Below, one piece after another: positions 33,582 to 42,480 of a stretch of 64,000 nucleotides of DNA; the first letter of the stretch is position 1, and every line of letters starts with the position of its first letter. Location of the stretch: contig JAQTYG010000001.1 of NCBI GenBank assembly GCA_028688375.1, positions 183,420 to 247,419 of the forward strand, read 5' to 3'. The position numbers were made by a program, and so were the translations under genes. Origin of the DNA: Patescibacteria group bacterium (GTDB lineage: Bacteria; Patescibacteriota; Patescibacteriia; Magasanikbacterales; GWA2-37-8). The notes beneath the pieces are model-generated. The model was given only the letters and a program-made list of their open reading frames with translations, ran no database searches and was not told the DNA's origin.

Positions 33582-36110
33582 TTATTGCGCTGTCTGAAAG
33601 TAATGGAAGCTGCGATAATCAGACCAGGGAGTATAGGTTGAATTATTTAATTTGGCGCGCACTCGGAAACGATAGGTGTTATCTGTGCCCGGCGCCCAAT
33701 AGCTGTAAGAATTACTACCGGTGATATAGGTATTAACAAGCGCCCACTGGCTGGAATAACCGTTGCAATAATCGCAGGCCACTTCCACGTCGTAATTTTG
33801 GGCGTTGCTGACCGAATACCAGCCCAGATTAACCGAGCGCGAACTTTGATTGATCGCCGCGTTGTTGGCCGGAGTATAAACTACCGGCGCATTGCCGTAA
33901 GAATTGCCGTTGGAAGAACCGCCGGCGTTAACCGAGAACTCTCGCCAATCAGACCAATTGGAATAAGCGCCATCGGAAAATTTCGTGCGCACGCGCATTC
34001 GATAATTATTATCGTACGAAAAATACATGGTGGCGAAATTGCTCCAGGCGGTCTGGGTGCGTTCCTCATACCAGCCGGTGCCGGATTTGTAATTGACGTT
34101 TATTTCGTAAGAAACAGAATGGCTATCATTTGACCAAGTGGCGTAAACATTGCGGCCGGTAAATGTCTGGCCGGCGTTCGGCATACTGATCAAAGGCGCG
34201 TCATCTAAATGATCATAACCGCCGCCATACGGCCCAACCATAAACTCTCGCCAATCAGACCAATCGCCGTAGGAATTATCCCAAAATTTAGCGCGAGCGC
34301 GCAAACGATAATAACCGTCATTGGTTACGTTGAAATTTAAACTATTTTGGATAGAGCCGTAAATACCGTCAGGCGTGCCATAGACATACCAGGTATTTCC
34401 AGATTTGTAATTAACCTCTACTGCATAAACATAAGCGCTGGGGACAGCGGTCCAACTGGAATAAACGGTGTGGTAGGTTAAGTACTGATCCTCGGTCGGA
34501 TTATATACGGAAATCCCGTTGGAATTGGAATTGTATTTATAATGGAAATAGCGATAATCAGACCAGGTGGTAAAATTGCCATTGCCTAAATTGGCGCGCA
34601 CGCGAAAATGGCACCAGGTATCGTCGCCGTGAACGGCATATAAATTATAGACGGCGCCGAACGGCAAATACGGATAAATAGTTTCAGTGCCATAGCCGTC
34701 GCAAGTCATTTCTATGATGTAACCGGTAACACCGGACACGCCGCTCCAACTTAAAGACACCATGCGACTGCCATTTTCAACCACGGCATTTTGCGCCGGA
34801 GTATAAATTACGGGGGCGGTAGTGTTATTATTGGTGCCGACGGTAAACTCTCGCCAGTCAGACCAATCGCTGTAGACAGAAGTGGTAAAATGGGCGCGGA
34901 CGCGGAAACGATATTTGTTATCGTCGCTAATATTCAGAGTGGGATTAACGTTGTAGACAGAGGTGTTGCTTTTGTTCACCCAAGCGCCATTGGAAAAATA
35001 ATCAAGATCCATTTCATAAGCCTGTGCGCCGGAATTGCTGGTCCAGCTGGCATTCACGAGATGATCATTGAAAACCTGGCCCTGCCACGGCGCGGTGATC
35101 ACCGGCGCGTCGTAATTGTGACTTCCGTTGTCATAATAAAAATGGTTGTATTCGCTCCACCCGCCGTAACTGCCGTTGCGGAAAGCGCGGACGCGGAAAC
35201 TGTATTGGCCAAAAACGCCGGAAGATAAAGTGACAGAAGTGTCGCTCGCGGTAATCGTGTTTTCCACCACCAAAACCCAAAATGAACCATTGTTTCTGGT
35301 CACTTGATATTGGTAAGCGGTGGCGCCGGCCACGACCGACCAATCCAAAGTTACATTATTACTTGTCAAATGGGCTTCATCAGTCGGCAAAAGAAGCGAC
35401 GGGACGGTTAAATCCGTGCCCGAATGCGTATCCACCTTAAAATACCGCCACTCAGACCAGTTGGTGTAGGTGTTGTTGGATAATTGCGCGCGAATTTTCA
35501 CGCGGTAACTGTTATCCCAAATGCCTTCGCCGATCACGTAATTATTGCTGGTTTGATAATCAACAAAATTTTTCCAAACGCCGTTGGAAGAATATTCCAC
35601 CGTAATAAAATAGGTTTGCGCGCTGACGACCGAGTTCCAATGGAAATCCGTGGAGTCCCAATCCATCGTTTGGTTGGCGCCTGGCACGGTAATCACCGGA
35701 GCGGTGGTCACCGGAGTTTGGGCGGAAGTATTAAATCTAAAATATTTATAATCAGACCAGTAACCGGCGGTAGCGCCATCATAAGCGCGGACACGCCAGC
35801 GGAATTGGTTGTCGCCCGGCATGGTTACGGTCAAAGTTCTGGCCGTAGTAGAATAGGTTTTAGCGCCCTGCCATTTGTTGGTTTTGCTGACGCAAACATC
35901 GCAGGTCACTTCCACTTCATACTTGGTGGCGTGGGAGACACTATCCCAGGTGAAGGTGGTTTGACGCGGATAATTAGTCAAGGTTTGATTGGACGCCGGA
36001 GCGGTCAAGTACGGAGCCGATAAAACCGAGGCCTTGGCCGTACCGACAGCAAAAAACGACGCCACAAAAATGACGGCGAGCCAAGCAACGATTTGGGGAT
36101 ATTTACGCAT
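33582..36110 (-). CDS. Secreted/cell-surface protein with about 8 tandem fibronectin type III-like repeats
   Basis: N-terminal signal peptide MRKYPQIVAWLAVIFVASFFAVGTAKA; recurrent about 95 aa units each ending Y/F-RFRVRA ... WSDWREF / WSDYRYF. Confidence 0.7.
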   Translation of the reverse strand: MRKYPQIVAWLAVIFVASFFAVGTAKASVLSAPYLTAPASNQTLTNYPRQTTFTWDSVSHATKYEVEVTCDVCVSKTNKWQGAKTYSTTARTLTVTMPGDNQFRWRVRAYDGATAGYWSDYKYFRFNTSAQTPVTTAPVITVPGANQTMDWDSTDFHWNSVVSAQTYFITVEYSSNGVWKNFVDYQTSNNYVIGEGIWDNSYRVKIRAQLSNNTYTNWSEWRYFKVDTHSGTDLTVPSLLLPTDEAHLTSNNVTLDWSVVAGATAYQYQVTRNNGSFWVLVVENTITASDTSVTLSSGVFGQYSFRVRAFRNGSYGGWSEYNHFYYDNGSHNYDAPVITAPWQGQVFNDHLVNASWTSNSGAQAYEMDLDYFSNGAWVNKSNTSVYNVNPTLNISDDNKYRFRVRAHFTTSVYSDWSDWREFTVGTNNNTTAPVIYTPAQNAVVENGSRMVSLSWSGVSGVTGYIIEMTCDGYGTETIYPYLPFGAVYNLYAVHGDDTWCHFRVRANLGNGNFTTWSDYRYFHYKYNSNSNGISVYNPTEDQYLTYHTVYSSWTAVPSAYVYAVEVNYKSGNTWYVYGTPDGIYGSIQNSLNFNVTNDGYYRLRARAKFWDNSYGDWSDWREFMVGPYGGGYDHLDDAPLISMPNAGQTFTGRNVYATWSNDSHSVSYEINVNYKSGTGWYEERTQTAWSNFATMYFSYDNNYRMRVRTKFSDGAYSNWSDWREFSVNAGGSSNGNSYGNAPVVYTPANNAAINQSSRSVNLGWYSVSNAQNYDVEVACDYCNGYSSQWALVNTYITGSNSYSYWAPGTDNTYRFRVRAKLNNSTYTPWSDYRSFHYFQTAQ

Positions 36111-37115: not shown

Positions 37116-37217
37116 TTTTTAGCTATTATAATCCGCCCGTTTAGGAACGGGCAACGAACATGGCCCGTTCGTCTATCAGTTAGGACACGGCCCTCTCAAG
37201 GCTGAAAGACGGGTGCG

Positions 37218-37236
37218 ATTCCCGTACGGGCTACAA
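37218..37236. repeat. 19 nt direct repeat ATTCCCGTACGGGCTACAA, copy 1 (tRNA-3'-end-like)
   Basis: Identical 19-mer recurs at 37449..37467. Confidence 0.6.
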
Positions 37237-37296: not shown

Positions 37297-37317
37297 CCTG
37301 CCTGCCGGCAGGCAGGC
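37297..37317. repeat. GC-rich palindromic repeat family D (CCTGCCTGCCGGCAGGCAGGC), left flank of the AT-rich defense island
   Basis: 20/21 identical to 42257..42277; core TGCCTGCCGGCAGGCA is a perfect palindrome. Confidence 0.55.
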
Positions 37318-37448: not shown

Positions 37449-37467
37449 ATTCCCGTACGGGCTACAA
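37449..37467. repeat. 19 nt direct repeat ATTCCCGTACGGGCTACAA, copy 2
   Basis: Identical to 37218..37236; preceded by several GC hairpins (GGCGGACTT..AAGTCCGCC, GCCGAGCCGA..TCGGCTCGGC). Confidence 0.6.
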
Positions 37468-37544
37468 CTGGCTTTTTGCTGAGGTTCCAGTTCACCAGCA
37501 CACTTTTTGCCCACTCGCTTTTGGCGGGACGATTTCAAGTTTTT

Positions 37545-37925
37545 TTATTTTTTGACAACATTGTCCTTGTTAAACAAAAAACCCACTACTATCAATGCTA
37601 ACCCGATCGTTTTTAAAAAACTCTCTCCAACAAAAAATGGCACAATATAACCTTCGTTAAAGCTCATCCATTTAAATCCTACTGCCACTATAACAAAAAA
37701 ATCAAAAACAACAATTGAAATGATAACCCGTAATAACCAATCAGACCATGTCCTTCTCATGCCCATTATATCCAGTCTTTCGCGAGCCAAAATTTGCGCA
37801 ATTATTTTATCCTGCTCCAGCTGGCTCATTTTCCTTTGTGTTTCTAAATCAGGCCCAACAATATCGTAAGTCGTTTGTTCCTCCAATATCTTTTTGACTT
37901 CCTCAACTGTTACGCGATTTTCCAT
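37545..37925 (-). CDS. Small membrane protein (126 aa, soluble N-terminal domain plus 2 TM helices); holin-like or membrane anchor
   Basis: WLLRVIISIVVFDFFVIVAVGF and LKTIGLALIVVGFLF hydrophobic helices; overlaps the ImmA-like gene by 16 nt. Confidence 0.45.
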   Translation of the reverse strand: MENRVTVEEVKKILEEQTTYDIVGPDLETQRKMSQLEQDKIIAQILARERLDIMGMRRTWSDWLLRVIISIVVFDFFVIVAVGFKWMSFNEGYIVPFFVGESFLKTIGLALIVVGFLFNKDNVVKK

Positions 37926-38506
37926 AAATTCAGCTTCTTCATTCTGAAAGCCATCATTTCATTTGACACTCCGAACATTTTGGCCAGCAGATCAATATCA
38001 TCTTTTGTAATTTTGTATTTATTTATTATTTCTTCAGCCATGTTTTTAGGCACAAGAATATTAGCGGCAAAACAATTAGCCTCTTGCTCTACCGGGCTAT
38101 AATTTCCATTAATGATTGTTTGTCGCAATAACACATTGTAGTCGGAAGGCTTATGTTCCATTTTAAAGTGTCCCAACTCATGTGCTATAGTGAACATCTG
38201 ACGATTTGCTGGGTCGTCATTGTTAACAAAAATTATCTTCTTTTCAATATCTAAGAAACCAGCGACGGATTGAAGCTTCTCGGGCATTTTAATAAAACGC
38301 AATTCCAGCCCCTCGCCTTTGGCAATTTGAAAAACATTAACAACGGGTTCGGTTACACCATATTTTACCAACAAATCATTGGCTAATTCTTCACATTTTG
38401 GAAAATTTGCCTCGCCCATATAATAATGGTTAATTTTTACTTCTGCTGTTGGTAGTATAGCACAATAAAGAAATTTTGACGATTTTAAATTTTTCTTTAT
38501 GCACAA
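37910..38506 (-). CDS. ImmA/IrrE family zinc metallo-endopeptidase (DUF955)
   Basis: HEXXH motif FTIAHELGHFKMEH plus downstream EQEANCFAANILVP are typical of ImmA/IrrE; real start is probably the internal MGEANFP. Confidence 0.65.
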   Translation of the reverse strand: MCIKKNLKSSKFLYCAILPTAEVKINHYYMGEANFPKCEELANDLLVKYGVTEPVVNVFQIAKGEGLELRFIKMPEKLQSVAGFLDIEKKIIFVNNDDPANRQMFTIAHELGHFKMEHKPSDYNVLLRQTIINGNYSPVEQEANCFAANILVPKNMAEEIINKYKITKDDIDLLAKMFGVSNEMMAFRMKKLNLWKIA

Positions 38507-39289
38507 TCAAGTAAAATCTATAAATTTAGCCTGGTATTTATCCTTCCACTGACTTTTAGAGATAACCCTCTCAGAATAAACACCGGGAGGCGGCCAGTTC
38601 ACCTCCGAAATTTTAATACTACCATCTTGGTACACCTCTTCTACAAACGCAACATGACCTACTGCAGGATTTTTTAAACTTCCGACGAACGACATGGCAC
38701 AACCGGCCTTTGGTTCTTCCAGAATCCTGTACTGGGCACTTCTTTGAAAAATCCCTGCCCATAAGCCCCCATTACGCGGTCTTTCTGCTGGCCATTTGAT
38801 AGTGATGCCCATTTGCTGAATTTTATAATGAACATACTCTACGCACTGAAGATCGTCTCTTCGTGCTCCTCCACCAAACTCATCATTAATAATTTTGCGT
38901 AATTTTATGGAATTTGCATCAGTCGCGAGATTTTTTTCGTGATTATGAAAAGCTGGCACGACATCCTGAAATACTTCTTTTTTCTGCAAATTTTCCAATG
39001 CGATTGGAACGACTTCTACTAAATAAAATTTAGAAACCCAGCCGTTTTTCCCATCAGCATTGACCCTAAACCAGTCGCCATTTTCTTCAACAGCCTCAAC
39101 CTTAGTACTAAAAGCGAGTTTTGCGATAATATTATCGTTGTTAATCTTTTCCGGGCTGGAACGCATGCGTAACCCATCGGAAGCACTGACAAATAACTCT
39201 TTAGTGGAAAATTGTGGAGTTATATCTGCTACATTTGTTTTTTCTTCGAAGTCAAACGTTTGATTGCACTTAGGACAAGTTATCGGCAT
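38507..39289 (-). CDS. Zinc-ribbon - SH3-like - CHAP domain protein (putative peptidoglycan amidase/endopeptidase; endolysin-like, no signal peptide)
   Basis: N-terminal CPKCNQTF zinc ribbon; NGDWFRVNADGKNGWVSKFYL SH3b-like; C-terminal QCVEYVHYKI ... GHVAFVEEV consistent with CHAP Cys/His catalytic residues. Confidence 0.55.
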   Translation of the reverse strand: MPITCPKCNQTFDFEEKTNVADITPQFSTKELFVSASDGLRMRSSPEKINNDNIIAKLAFSTKVEAVEENGDWFRVNADGKNGWVSKFYLVEVVPIALENLQKKEVFQDVVPAFHNHEKNLATDANSIKLRKIINDEFGGGARRDDLQCVEYVHYKIQQMGITIKWPAERPRNGGLWAGIFQRSAQYRILEEPKAGCAMSFVGSLKNPAVGHVAFVEEVYQDGSIKISEVNWPPPGVYSERVISKSQWKDKYQAKFIDFT

Positions 39290-39335
39290 ATAATATTTTC
39301 GGGTTATTTATAATATCATTATACTAGAAAGAATC

Positions 39336-40427
39336 TTATTTTCCAGATTTGGTTCGATTATCTTGCTTACACAACATTTGGCAATTCTCGGCAACAGTTT
39401 TACCACCCTCGTGCCACGGCTTTATATGGTCGGCTTCCATTTCTTCTATTTCAAAACGCTTCTTGCATTTTTTACAAATTCCTTTTTGCCTCTCATACGC
39501 TTCGCGCTTCATTTTGTCCGTAAAAGCACGAATCGAAAGAAATTTTTCTTGTCCCGTTAAAACATACGGGTAAATACCGGATTTTTTTGTAACATCTTCA
39601 TCTTGCATTAACTCTTTGATCTCGGCTTCAAGTTTACCGGCGTTCAATTTCCTATCTTTGAATTGATTATACAGTTCACCCCATTGCACGCCACTCATTT
39701 CTCGGCGATAATTTGTAAAAATTTTACGCACCCACGCAATCACGTCTTGAAAATACTGCCACAATGCTTCCGCATCCTTTTTATTTTGATGTTTGGCCAT
39801 GTAATCTTCTATCTTGCCGTCGTTAATCCACGAAAGTGCTGTTTCTAAATACTCCTGGCGAATTGGCGAGCCGTTAACTAATTGCCCGCCGTCGTTCGCT
39901 AACAAATATGCCGCGCAATTTGATTTGCTGAATTTAAGTTTGGCGTCAGAGAGCCATGGCCCGGTATATACCGCGTTGCGTATTTCTTGGTCAGTCAATT
40001 TTTCACCGGCAATATTAATAATTCTAAACCAGTCCAGTCGTTCTTTGTCTGTACCCTCGCAGAAATATATCATCAGTTCATAATCCAAAATCTGTTTTTG
40101 TTCTTCGTTGGTCAAGTTGTGAAAAAAACGATCATTCAGCGAAAAATCGCCATTAATATATTGCCCGATACTAATGGTGCGCTGTTGGCCGTCCAAAACT
40201 TCGAAATTTCCTTGGTCGGTCTTGACCCAGTACATCACATTAAGCGGAAAGCTATTTTTAATCGTTTCAAGCACGGCATCCCGCTGTTTGCCGGTATAAA
40301 CAAATTCGCGCTGATATTTGGGGCGGATATCCAGCTTACCGCCATACGCGACCACGCCTTCTTCGGCGCTGTCTTTGTAACCAACGACCACTTTACGCAC
40401 CGAAATTTTATGTAATTCAATTTTCAT
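39336..40427 (-). CDS. DUF262 (ParB/GmrSD N-terminal-like) - HNH endonuclease fusion protein; candidate restriction/defense nuclease
   Basis: VLDGQQRT (DGQQR signature of DUF262); C-terminal CKKCKKRFEIEEMEADHIKPWHEGGKTVAENCQMLCKQDNRTK HNH motif. Confidence 0.7.
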   Translation of the reverse strand: MKIELHKISVRKVVVGYKDSAEEGVVAYGGKLDIRPKYQREFVYTGKQRDAVLETIKNSFPLNVMYWVKTDQGNFEVLDGQQRTISIGQYINGDFSLNDRFFHNLTNEEQKQILDYELMIYFCEGTDKERLDWFRIINIAGEKLTDQEIRNAVYTGPWLSDAKLKFSKSNCAAYLLANDGGQLVNGSPIRQEYLETALSWINDGKIEDYMAKHQNKKDAEALWQYFQDVIAWVRKIFTNYRREMSGVQWGELYNQFKDRKLNAGKLEAEIKELMQDEDVTKKSGIYPYVLTGQEKFLSIRAFTDKMKREAYERQKGICKKCKKRFEIEEMEADHIKPWHEGGKTVAENCQMLCKQDNRTKSGK

Positions 40428-40428
40428 A

Positions 40429-41382
40429 TTATTTTTTTACTTTCTTATTTTTAACTAAAATTCTAAAATATGTAAATTTCCCATTTATTGACAGGTCTTT
40501 ATCATCATCGCCCTTACGAAACTTCACAATTTCAAACTGGTCCGGATTATATTTATCAATAAAAGTTATCGGCACACCAATAACGCCGTTATAATCATAG
40601 GGAATATCCGTATATTTGTCTACGTTGATTGCATCATAATTATCATAATGTGGATATTCCTCGGGGTTGTATTTTTTATATAATGTTATAAATTCCTTAT
40701 GCTTTTCAACCTCAAGGCTTGTGAACCAACACGAAGTTGAAACTCGCGCGATTTTCTTACCGTTCTCATCAATATGGTGAAACAATTCCCAATCGTCTGG
40801 CACCATAAAGAACATACCGACGTTAAAATTGGTGTAACCTGTTCGAATTTTGTCTTCTTTGAATAACTTAAAAATTTCTTTATAAGTTATCGCATTGGTA
40901 TTGCCGATAATCAAAAACCTCTTATCGTACTCCATCAGCTGCGCCATATACTCACGAAATAGTGAAAATGGCGGGTTTGTTACTATGATGTCAGCTTGTT
41001 TGAGAAGGTCAATACATTCCTTGCTTCGGAAATCGCCGTCGCTTATCATTTCGGTCATAAATTCATCCGGGTCGGGCATGCGATTACCATTTTTATCCCC
41101 AGCGTATTCCAATTTATAAGGTTTTTTATTGGTAAATAAAGTTGCGCCTTTGAAATGGGTGGCAATCAATTTCTTCAATCCTAAATGTTCAAAATTTCTA
41201 CTGAAATATTTAACAAAGTTACTTTCTCTCGGGTCATCGCAATTACAAAATACCACCTTTCCTCGAAACTGATCTTTATAATGCTTGATTTCATTTTCAA
41301 TATCGGCAAGCTGGGTATAAAACTCGTCTTTCTTTTCTTTACTTGCCTTATGCAAACTTTTATTTGATGATTTAGTTACCAT
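40429..41382 (-). CDS. N6-adenine DNA methyltransferase of the M.EcoRI family
   Basis: KDEFYTQLADIENEIKHYKDQFRGKVVFCNCDDPRESNFVKYF and IIVTNPPFSLFREY (NPPF catalytic motif) closely parallel M.EcoRI-family methylases; 317 aa; 1 nt gap to the downstream gene and 2 nt to the upstream gene. Confidence 0.7.
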   Translation of the reverse strand: MVTKSSNKSLHKASKEKKDEFYTQLADIENEIKHYKDQFRGKVVFCNCDDPRESNFVKYFSRNFEHLGLKKLIATHFKGATLFTNKKPYKLEYAGDKNGNRMPDPDEFMTEMISDGDFRSKECIDLLKQADIIVTNPPFSLFREYMAQLMEYDKRFLIIGNTNAITYKEIFKLFKEDKIRTGYTNFNVGMFFMVPDDWELFHHIDENGKKIARVSTSCWFTSLEVEKHKEFITLYKKYNPEEYPHYDNYDAINVDKYTDIPYDYNGVIGVPITFIDKYNPDQFEIVKFRKGDDDKDLSINGKFTYFRILVKNKKVKK

Positions 41383-41384
41383 AA

Positions 41385-42134
41385 TTATCTTCTTGTTATC
41401 AAGTCATACGCCAAGCTGGCGAGTGATATATAATGAATTGCTAAATTTTTATCCAAATCTTGAGCGGGAGTATGCGCTTTTTCATTCCGCAAAAATTGGA
41501 TGGACATATGTAAAAATTTTACTCCCTCAAAAAAATCTTTTTCCGCGTCATTTTTCGGTTTCCGCCCAAAAATTATTTCTTGGTTCGATTCCGCAAACGC
41601 CTCGTGCGCTTTTTCTTTGCCGGTAATATCTCTGAGCTTTTGACGAACGATTTTATACGCTTCTTCTACGGCGTTAAAATAATGCCCACTATTCAGAAAT
41701 TTTTGAACATGGTCAAAAACTTCTTTTTGCAAAATTATATTGATATTACCGTTCTTAAAGGTGGCTTGGGATATATTTTCAACTTTCACTTTTACCCCAA
41801 GAAGTTTTTCGCCAATGTTTTTAGCGGCGGTCATTCTGTCGGCTGGAAAATCATCTCGTTTCAAATTATCCAATAAAATCTGATTTTCAATATATTCAAT
41901 GAGTTTCAAAATACTTTTTCCAACGATTTTATCGTCTGCGTTCGTCCATAGGCCACGGAGACGATTTGCTTTTGAACCGCTGGCATAATTGTACCTTTGA
42001 TTGTAAATATCAATGCCGATGTCATCTCTAAAAAATTCACCCATTGTTCGGTCGGAAAAATTCAAAACATAACCACTGCCCATCTGGAGTAGTTTTTCAA
42101 GTGTCTGTTTTTCGAGTGTAGTCAGTTCTGCCAT
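41385..42134 (-). CDS. HEPN domain protein (TIGR02391/Swt1-like, Rx4-6H motif); Abi-like RNase candidate
   Basis: C-terminal FLRNEKAHTP provides the HEPN R-x4-H motif; first gene of the three-gene operon; sigma70-like promoter (TTGCGA-16/17-TAGAAT) immediately upstream at about 42140..42175. Confidence 0.55.
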   Translation of the reverse strand: MAELTTLEKQTLEKLLQMGSGYVLNFSDRTMGEFFRDDIGIDIYNQRYNYASGSKANRLRGLWTNADDKIVGKSILKLIEYIENQILLDNLKRDDFPADRMTAAKNIGEKLLGVKVKVENISQATFKNGNINIILQKEVFDHVQKFLNSGHYFNAVEEAYKIVRQKLRDITGKEKAHEAFAESNQEIIFGRKPKNDAEKDFFEGVKFLHMSIQFLRNEKAHTPAQDLDKNLAIHYISLASLAYDLITRR

Positions 42135-42139
42135 AATCT

Positions 42140-42480
42140 TATTCTATTCTATACTTATTAGAAAGATTCGCAATATATTTCTGGATTCCCGCCAGAGTTT
42201 ATCCTCGCGAAAGCGGGGGCGGGAATGACAGGGCTTCGCCGCGACCTCACCCCAGCCCTGCCTACCGGCAGGCAGGCCTCTCCTTATCAAGGAGAGGGGC
42301 GCCGGAGGGATTCCTCCACTACGGTCGGAATGACAGGACTTCCCCTCGCCCCCTCTTTATATAAGAGGGGGAAAGATCCTTCGCTTCGCTCAGGATGACA
42401 AGTGGCGGGAATGACAGGGTGACGAGAAGATCCTTCTCTCCGCTCAGGGTGACACCGCAAATTGCGGTGTCACTTTCTCT
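42140..42480. repeat. Repeat-dense intergenic region: at least five REP-like elements (families A, B, D plus the CTCTCCTTATCAAGGAGAGG hairpin and the GTGACACCGC-AAATT-GCGGTGTCAC hairpin)
   Basis: Family A at 42180..42232, D at 42257..42277, B-type at 42371..42400 and 42424..42454, perfect 10 bp hairpin at 42451..42473. Confidence 0.6.
42257..42277. repeat. GC-rich palindromic repeat family D (CCTGCCTACCGGCAGGCAGGC), right flank of the defense island
   Basis: 20/21 identical to 37297..37317. Confidence 0.55.

Follow-up and report, generated by a model that had tools for sequence, protein, structure and literature searches.

An EcoRI-family methyltransferase and a DUF262-HNH nuclease, preceded by a HEPN rider gene, in an AT-rich island of a Patescibacteria genome

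Introduction

The EcoRI system is a two-gene Type II restriction-modification (R-M) system found on mobile DNA, in which the nuclease has a PD-(D/E)XK fold and its gene precedes that of the methyltransferase. In other R-M systems, C proteins time the expression of the restriction gene. A second line of defence has its conceptual model in PrrC and RloC, HEPN-type RNases encoded within Type Ic (hsd) loci; PrrC carries an N-terminal ABC-ATPase and RloC a Rad50-like ATPase, and both are kept latent by the R-M proteins of the Type I locus. The characterised DUF262 enzymes GmrSD, BrxU and SspE are modification-sensing, and consist of an N-terminal ParB-like DUF262 domain with the motif DGQ(Q/H)R followed by a His-Me-finger nuclease of the DUF1524 type. 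Reviews present DUF262 mainly as a detector of modified DNA; to date, its ParB-like NTP-binding domain is known from modification-dependent enzymes only. The PADLOC catalogue contains a Type II pair represented by the profiles PDLC03418 (REase_II) and PDLC03297 (MTase_II). Finally, the HEPN survey of Anantharaman et al. 2013 lists the Ymh family, with its catalytic motif conserved, as "In operon with R-M" and highlights forms fused to paraMORC, AbiJ-NTD and AbiTii (PMC3710099).

Here we describe a locus in a 64,000-nt stretch of a Patescibacteria genome (the window), in which a Ymh-type HEPN gene heads an EcoRI-family methyltransferase gene and a gene for a DUF262-HNH protein. A first-pass annotation had proposed an undescribed three-component system. 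Our analysis indicates that the locus is very probably an ordinary defence island, composed of a conventional mobile Type II-style pair and an accessory Ymh rider, and not a new three-part system.

Results

Gene organization of the locus

Three minus-strand genes follow one another head to tail in the order Ymh, methyltransferase (M) and nuclease (R), downstream of a promoter candidate:

42146–42173, minus strand: sigma-70-like promoter candidate TTGCGA-N16-TAGAAT, 11 nt 5' of the Ymh ATG
41385–42134, minus strand: Ymh/TIGR02391 HEPN protein, 249 aa
40429–41382, minus strand: EcoRI-family N6-adenine DNA methyltransferase M, compact variant with catalytic NPPF, 317 aa
39336–40427, minus strand: restriction endonuclease R (predicted), DUF262 + HNH, 363 aa

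The ORF calls give spacers of 2 nt between Ymh and M (41383–41384) and of 1 nt between M and R (40428), in agreement with the gaps reported in the first-pass annotation. The start codons are credible: the N-terminus of M aligns with the start of M.EcoRI, and those of R and Ymh agree with the N-termini of their homologues. Specifically, the translations contain DEFYT and NPPFSLFREY in M, DGQQR and an HNH block (DH...N...N, CxxC...CxxxC) in R, and RNEKAH (Rx4H) in Ymh, and all of these motifs are invariant across 33–35 homologues. Profile searches also bear out the domain identities previously assigned to the three proteins, namely a TIGR02391/Ymh HEPN protein, an EcoRI-family methyltransferase and a DUF262 + HNH protein. 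The Ymh gene is flanked by the M gene and by a non-coding GC-rich repeat region. The TTGCGA/TAGAAT promoter noted earlier is present as a site with an N16 spacer (42173–42146, minus strand), but its standing as a promoter is less secure: it scores 9/12, and 28 promoter-like sites were found in the 5.6-kb region against 14 expected from shuffles. Because of this score, and because such sites are common in an AT-rich stretch, the candidate is weak evidence by itself and suggestive only.

The operon lies with unrelated cargo in an island next to a tRNA gene:

37468–42200, no strand: AT-rich, horizontally acquired island carrying the operon and unrelated cargo (composition profile)
37162–37234, plus strand: tRNA-Glu(CTC) at the island border (ARAGORN)
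38507–39289, minus strand: SH3 + CHAP peptidoglycan hydrolase-like protein (Pfam CHAP 4.7e-13, SH3_3 2.4e-8)
37910–38506, minus strand: M78/ImmA-IrrE-type metallopeptidase (Pfam Peptidase_M78 7.3e-21, PADLOC capP 5.1e-27)
37545–37925, minus strand: 126-aa protein with a hydrophobic C-terminal half (ORF call)

The composition profile agrees with the claimed island, with a GC content of 0.34–0.42 at about 37.5 to 42.0 kb versus 0.46–0.61 in the flanks. The last 19 nt of the tRNA-Glu (37218–37236) are exactly duplicated at 37449–37467 (repeat D12; two matches versus none expected), and this second copy of the tRNA 3' end forms the left edge of the island. Additionally, a 20-nt palindrome stands on both sides of it (37297–37316 and 42257–42276). 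The operon probably arrived within a 4.7-kb AT-rich island adjoining the tRNA-Glu of this Patescibacteria genome. As for the cargo, the 126-aa protein has no family match in Pfam, PADLOC or NCBIfam profile searches. The CHAP, M78 peptidase and membrane-protein genes were considered as parts of the system and rejected, since none recurs beside R (0/82 related loci).

The methyltransferase and the nuclease

M matches Pfam PF13651 (1.4e-123) and, over its full length, PADLOC MTase_II (PDLC03297, 6.5e-120). The parallel with M.EcoRI drawn in the first-pass annotation is confirmed by full-length alignment to the genuine enzyme (54.4% identity over 327 aligned positions), and DEFYT and NPPF are common to both. 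The PF13651 match, the NPPF motif and the 54% identity to M.EcoRI identify M as an AdoMet-dependent N6-adenine methyltransferase; it has no sequence match in PDB. With 317 aa, M is a compact variant with deletions in three segments. Across related loci the M genes are variable (45–85% identity) beside a nearly constant R, which is thus the more conserved of the two, and the variation of M is confined to three indel-prone segments while its core is conserved. We considered that this variability might reflect swapped M specificities, but found no sign of exchanged target-recognition modules. By its kinship with M.EcoRI, the target site of M would be GAATTC or close to it. Palindrome avoidance in the window and in 734 kb of system-bearing loci is generic, with GAATTC at 0.63 and 0.82 of expectation, values that are not distinctive.

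R consists of an N-terminal DUF262/ParB-like domain (residues 34–154) that contains DGQQR, a middle region for which profile searches matched no family, and a C-terminal zinc-ribbon HNH domain (residues 318–361). The best N-terminal Pfam match is GmrSD_N (3e-16) and the C-terminus matches HNH (PF01844, 2.3e-12), so that the earlier statement that a DUF262-HNH protein replaces the EcoRI-type nuclease holds. The locus differs from EcoRI in the nuclease fold and in its gene order, M then R. The PADLOC profile REase_II (PDLC03418) aligns with residues 1–363 of R over profile positions 1–372 of 372 (E = 1.5e-136), and homologues of R fall into 514 clusters at 50% identity (E<=1e-30). An AlphaFold model of R reached a pLDDT of only 40, a consequence of an alignment limited to homologues at >=85% identity.

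The PADLOC matches place both proteins in a known class, so that the pair would be typed as RM type II, which counts against the novelty claimed for the three-gene locus; the catalogued pair has the same adjacency and order, and the present locus differs in its compact M and in the Ymh gene in front. The full texts searched, the PADLOC papers among them, contain no characterised DUF262-HNH Type II enzyme and do not describe the provenance of PDLC03418, and the literature searched yielded no biochemistry for Ymh, M or R. In RefSeq, R homologues are called just "DUF262 domain-containing protein", and NCBIfam has no model that gives them a name. Given this naming and the untraced origin of PDLC03418, the "Type II" label of R may rest on gene context instead of an assayed enzyme.

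The HEPN gene

The HEPN protein scores 102.6 bits against TIGR02391 (curated cut-off 39.45) and 61.6 bits against PF09509 (cut-off 25). Its C-terminal HEPN domain (about residues 135–248) has the four-helix fold and an invariant R216-x4-H221, which conforms to the conserved Rx4-6H pattern. For the N-terminal ~115 aa, profile searches matched no family, and the protein has no sequence match in PDB. From the HEPN motif, Ymh is predicted to be a metal-independent RNase. This predicted activity, encoded within an R-M locus, is what it shares with PrrC and RloC. However, Ymh has only 249 aa and is without an ABC-ATPase or Rad50-like domain (no ATPase family matched in Pfam, NCBIfam or PADLOC), and it heads a Type II pair where those proteins belong to Type Ic loci. 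We found no evidence of tRNA cleavage by Ymh or of its silencing by R-M proteins. Like the Ymh proteins recorded in R-M operons, it lies above the curated cut-offs, carries Rx4H and sits in an R-M operon, but it is a solo form and not one of the fused forms highlighted there (PMC3710099).

Ymh might act not as a defence effector but as a regulatory or addiction element, either timing R expression as C proteins do or keeping the island stable as a toxin. We consider this unlikely: ORF calls and profile searches reveal no MNT or other antitoxin gene adjoining Ymh, as a HEPN-MNT toxin-antitoxin pair would have, the protein has no HTH domain, and the gene is absent from most M-R loci.

A stronger role was implied by the first-pass annotation, in which the HEPN RNase would serve as a fail-safe dedicated to this particular R-M pair, making an obligate and undescribed three-component system. 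The spacers of 2 and 1 nt are compatible with this idea, and the same gene order, Ymh-M-R, is found again in loci L003, L083 and L085–L087 and on at least 20 metagenome contigs. Ymh homologues of 69–91% identity sit 3–10 nt upstream of EcoRI-family M genes, and such an M lies directly downstream of 19 of the 27 Ymh genes at >=83% identity, though of only 4/39 below that value. The linkage in this one sub-clade suggests that a functional partnership with this R-M family is possible in that lineage. As an obligate arrangement it is nevertheless very unlikely. Of 80 genome loci with R, just two also have Ymh, so that the proposed check of neighbourhood conservation shows the HEPN gene not to be co-conserved, whereas the M-R pair is (80/82). 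Where the gene after Ymh is not an EcoRI-family M, it is HsdS (12/31), an N6_N4 methyltransferase (11/31), or another methyltransferase or restriction enzyme; near-identical Ymh genes (86–90%) also precede unrelated methyltransferases, and those at 71–80% identity Type I specificity genes. The order also varies, being M-Ymh-R in L088 and M-R-Ymh in L162. Furthermore, Ymh at 90% identity is found paired with an R of only 34–38% identity, and therefore the Ymh cassette moves independently of the M-R pair. The general association of Ymh with R-M operons was, moreover, already published in 2013 (PMC3710099), and the claim of an undescribed system does not survive. Together, these data show Ymh to be a rider that joins Type I, other-methyltransferase and Type II R-M operons promiscuously.

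Linkage of the methyltransferase and nuclease genes

The relation between M and R is of a different kind. We collected 82 related loci from plasmids and from chromosomes of many phyla, with representatives in Patescibacteria, Omnitrophota, Elusimicrobiota, Atribacterota and Flavobacteriaceae. In 80 of them, M and R share a strand and M comes immediately before R. The M-less loci, L023 and L027, have 463 and 983 nt of upstream sequence only, and no locus among the 82 with sufficient upstream sequence is without M. The two genes overlap or lie <=10 nt apart in 67/88 complete pairs, and plasmid annotations in Bacillota, Bacteroidota, Pseudomonadota and Actinomycetota include the same pair. Fusions of M to R also occur: P0263 joins EcoRI_methylase, GmrSD_N and HNH, and P0377 is partly similar. 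The locus thus has the separate, adjacent M and R genes of a classical Type II system, with a 1-nt spacer and the labels MTase_II and REase_II, and a dependence of R on its cognate M is indicated by the absence of M-less loci among those with enough upstream sequence, by the fusions and by L088, where M is intact and R broken. The adjacency, the fusions and the PADLOC labels point to a conventional mobile R-M unit and not to a paradoxical Type IV enzyme. Co-expression with a methylase, which the first-pass annotation had regarded as paradoxical, is what a full-length REase_II match lying downstream of M in nearly all loci leads one to expect.

That R is a GmrSD-like Type IV, modification-dependent nuclease, with M marking self DNA differently or being merely a defence-island neighbour, is highly improbable: the GmrSD_N match, the secondary PADLOC matches to NsnA and PD-T4-2_A and the view of DUF262 taken in reviews speak for it, but R has no DUF1524 match at E<=0.1 and ends in a PF01844 HNH with four zinc cysteines, its matches among PDB sequences are weak HNH matches only, with none to GmrSD-type chains at E<=1, its full-length PADLOC label is REase_II and not REase_IV, and its constant pairing with M, in overlapping, abutting or fused frames, fits a toxic nuclease that needs its methylase, whereas a stand-alone Type IV enzyme needs none.

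Discussion

We favour the reading of the locus as a conventional mobile Type II-style pair with an accessory Ymh gene. In such a system, M would methylate an adenine within a short recognition sequence of the host DNA, and R would use a beta-beta-alpha-metal HNH site to cut DNA that lacks the mark of M, with DNA or nucleotide binding probably supplied by the DUF262 and middle regions. Ymh would be not an obligate third subunit but an accessory cassette, inserted in front of or within R-M operons of several types, and most plausibly serves as a second layer of the abortive-infection or addiction type. The gene structure, the family memberships, the HEPN fold, the M-R linkage and the promiscuity of Ymh are direct results of the analysis, whereas the RNase activity of Ymh and its trigger, the target site of M and the protection of host DNA by methylation are inferred.

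A bolder proposal, which we regard as speculative and rather doubtful, is that the R-M-linked Ymh sub-clade is a PrrC-like fail-safe, and/or that R represents a biochemically uncharacterised, methylation-blocked class with a ParB-like NTP-binding domain. M or R would then hold Ymh inactive, and phage anti-restriction that disables M or R would release it; if true, this would be a compact Type II R-M system combined with an abortive-infection module. R is unusually well conserved, more so than M, a hint that it is under constraints other than site recognition alone.

On the favoured reading of a Type II-style pair with a rider, no new category is opened, as the pair is catalogued by PADLOC and the HEPN/R-M operon association has been known since 2013. 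The M-R pair is, however, extremely widespread and highly conserved in Patescibacteria (CPR) and neighbouring phyla, and its organization would place a DUF262 nuclease on the "protective methylation" side of restriction. As sensing of modified DNA is the main role that current reviews give to DUF262, R merits biochemical attention.

R-M operons of this family also appear as landing pads for accessory genes, among them Ymh, T5orf172, RhuM and DUF2130. The neighbours of the pair form 242 clusters, 213 of them singletons, with T5orf172, RhuM, DUF2130, DUF3800 and Bro-N as recurrent alternative cargo; the first three occupy, at other loci, the same positions as Ymh here.

An R-M pair of a catalogued family with a HEPN rider

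The operon, from a Patescibacteria MAG, represents an ordinary case of a catalogued and very widespread restriction-modification (R-M) family, joined by a known type of HEPN rider: the R-M pair is present in PADLOC, and the association of Ymh with R-M was listed in a 2013 survey. The features described in the first-pass annotation are real, and its domain calls for the HEPN, methylase and DUF262/HNH proteins are correct, yet the locus falls into this catalogued family. Three minus-strand ORFs lie exactly where they had been placed, with spacers of 2 nt (Ymh/M) and 1 nt (M/R), and all quoted motifs are readable in the translations and show no variation across 33-35 homologues.

Features of the operon
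41385-42134 (-), Ymh gene, TIGR02391/Ymh-family HEPN protein, 249-aa ORF; Rx4H motif RNEKAH
40429-41382 (-), M gene, EcoRI-family N6-adenine methyltransferase, 317-aa ORF; DEFYT, NPPFSLFREY
39336-40427 (-), R gene, DUF262 + HNH nuclease, 363-aa ORF; DGQQR and HNH block
42173-42146 (-), promoter candidate TTGCGA-N16-TAGAAT, 11 nt ahead of the Ymh ATG

The proposed promoter was found at this position as a site, but it is only suggestive, since it scores 9/12 and 28 such sites occur in the region versus 14 in shuffles.

M matches Pfam EcoRI_methylase (1.4e-123) and PADLOC MTase_II (6.5e-120), and shares 54.4% identity across 327 aligned positions with an E. coli plasmid methylase adjoining a 'type-2 restriction enzyme EcoRI'. 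R comprises GmrSD_N/DUF262 at residues 34-154 (3e-16) and HNH at residues 318-361 (2.3e-12), while the PADLOC model PDLC03418 ('Type II restriction enzyme') spans residues 1-363 with profile positions 1-372 of 372 (E = 1.5e-136). R shares DUF262 with GmrSD-type enzymes but carries HNH in place of DUF1524; since the profile search gave no DUF1524 match and the sequence search did not detect resemblance to any solved GmrSD-type chain, R by its sequence lies outside the GmrSD family in the strict sense. The predicted structure of R had a pLDDT of 40. The family carries no functional name in RefSeq or NCBIfam, the source enzyme(s) of PDLC03418 could not be traced, and we found no paper characterising a DUF262-HNH restriction enzyme; gene context, rather than an assay, may thus underlie the 'Type II' label.

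M and R as a probable classical R-M unit

Scanning a single genome from each species returned 547 R relatives. The best 80, with identities of 80-89%, represent many Patescibacteria classes as well as Omnitrophota, Elusimicrobiota, Atribacterota and Flavobacteriaceae MAGs. Among 82 loci (two of them plasmids), 80 have an EcoRI-family methylase upstream of R on the same strand; the other two are uninformative because their contigs reach just 463 and 983 nt upstream, and in one of them (L027) a J-domain gene occupies that space. The M and R frames overlap or lie at most 10 nt apart in 67 of 88 complete pairs. Additionally, the pair, annotated as 'adenine-specific methyltransferase EcoRI family protein' plus 'DUF262 domain-containing protein', is present on plasmids of Staphylococcaceae, Lactobacillales, Bacteroidota, Proteobacteria and Actinomycetota. 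The R family forms 514 clusters (50% identity, E<=1e-30), of which at least one representative (P0263, 688 aa) combines EcoRI_methylase, DUF262 and HNH in a single polypeptide, and in another (P0377, 515 aa) DUF262 follows an incomplete methylase; both would be naturally fused M-R proteins, provided that they do not reflect read-through in gene calling. In the related locus L088 (3960-6869), R is a pseudogene in three fragments, while M and Ymh are intact. Together, these data are the signature of a toxic nuclease needing a protective methylase, namely a classical R-M unit.

The presence of a methylase beside a DUF262 nuclease had been regarded as paradoxical, as it would be if R were a stand-alone modification-dependent enzyme. 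The near-universal upstream methylase, the overlapping frames and the single-polypeptide forms argue against such an enzyme, and the paradox dissolves. Full-length R homologues also occur in an uncultured human-gut phage genome (MT835503.1, 63% identity) and in Flavobacterium phage vB_FspS_laban6-1 (NC_048834.1, 37%), so the family is also phage-borne.

As a classical R-M unit, family membership and strict gene linkage suggest that M would methylate an adenine within a short site and that R would cleave DNA without this mark. Since M is 54% identical to M.EcoRI, its target may reasonably be guessed to be GAATTC or a similar sequence; palindrome statistics over the window and 734 kb of related loci were not diagnostic.

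Unlike the usual pattern of Type II systems, R is more conserved than M. Across 3828 pairwise comparisons (loci L003-L169 plus window 39336-41382), mean identity is 75% for R and 59% for M, with R exceeding M in 88% of the pairs; where R is at least 80% identical, the median M identity is 61%. R is free of indels, and M variation is limited to three indel-rich segments, the window's M being a short variant (317 aa).

Ymh is a mobile accessory of R-M operons

The three genes had been proposed as an undescribed three-component system. Seen from R, an obligate role of Ymh is rejected, since co-conservation of the trio is confined to 2 of 80 R-bearing genome loci, a full copy in L003 and a fragment at a contig end in L078. 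Moreover, Anantharaman et al. 2013 included Ymh (PF09509) among the HEPN families, recording its catalytic motif as conserved and its context as 'In operon with R-M' (PMC3710099). The same survey (PMC3710099) proposed PrrC/RloC-like roles for ATPase-fused Ymh forms, and reported that operons of other HEPN families also encode ParB and HNH nucleases as well as DNA methylases.

Seen from Ymh, which has 1694 homologues, we examined 80 metagenome loci at 69-91% identity. Of the 27 informative, non-redundant Ymh copies at >=83% identity, 19 have an EcoRI-family methylase 3-10 nt downstream, versus 4 of 39 copies below 83%. Where another gene comes next, it almost always still encodes part of an R-M system: a Type I specificity subunit (12/31), an N6_N4 methylase (11/31), or else another methylase or REase. 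Ymh copies 90% identical precede M-R pairs whose R is just 34-38% identical to that of the window, and gene order differs between loci, L088 having M-Ymh-R and L162 M-R-Ymh. Thus, Ymh is a mobile accessory of R-M operons generally, with one sub-clade biased to the EcoRI-family pair. To judge only by its HEPN motif and fold, Ymh is a predicted RNase that would most plausibly provide an extra abortive-infection or addiction layer.

Accessory cargo and the surrounding island

In this family, the R-M operon acts as a landing pad for cargo of an accessory or defence type. Clustering by sequence divides the neighbours of the pair into 242 clusters, 213 of them singletons, and cargo can precede M, separate M from R (19 loci) or follow R. 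Recurrent types are T5orf172 (10 loci), DUF2130 (5), RhuM (4), DUF3800, Bro-N and HTH-SocA/Panacea; an SDH-type protease is a further example. Cargo-bearing loci include L007, L033, L048, L059, L062, L065, L067 and L069.

The operon lies within a 4.7 kb island, whose reported AT-richness is evident from a GC content of 0.34-0.42 at ~37.5 to 42.0 kb versus 0.46-0.61 on either side.

Features of the island
37162-37234, tRNA-Glu(CTC) gene, island border
37545-39289, island cargo: SH3+CHAP cell-wall hydrolase, M78/ImmA-type peptidase, 126-aa membrane protein

The last 19 nt of the tRNA gene, ATTCCCGTACGGGCTACAA (37218-37236), recur as an exact second copy at 37449-37467, directly after which the island begins. 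This duplication looks like an att-type integration scar; no integrase was found within the island. The far edge is a GC-rich repeat region followed by a mur/fts gene cluster. The M78 peptidase is capP-like in PADLOC (5e-27), with no HTH partner adjacent, and its gene is overlapped by 16 nt by that of the membrane protein. These three cargo genes were dismissed as unrelated to the R-M pair, since they never lie beside R in the 82 related loci.

A 20-nt GC-rich perfect palindrome, CCTGCCTGCCGGCAGGCAGG, flanks the island at 37297-37316 and, with one mismatch, at 42257-42276. Upstream of the operon, 42200-42460 is non-coding, GC-rich and made of short repeats resembling a small dispersed repeat element, with GGAATGACAGG at 42222, 42327 and 42408, and the 28-nt unit AAGATCCTTC.CT.CGCTCAGG.TGACA at 42373 and 42427. 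Outside the island, 33582-36110 (-) encodes an 842-aa secreted-looking protein built from some nine tandem repeats. Each repeat is ~90 aa long and closes with a W..W/Y..F..RVRA-like motif.
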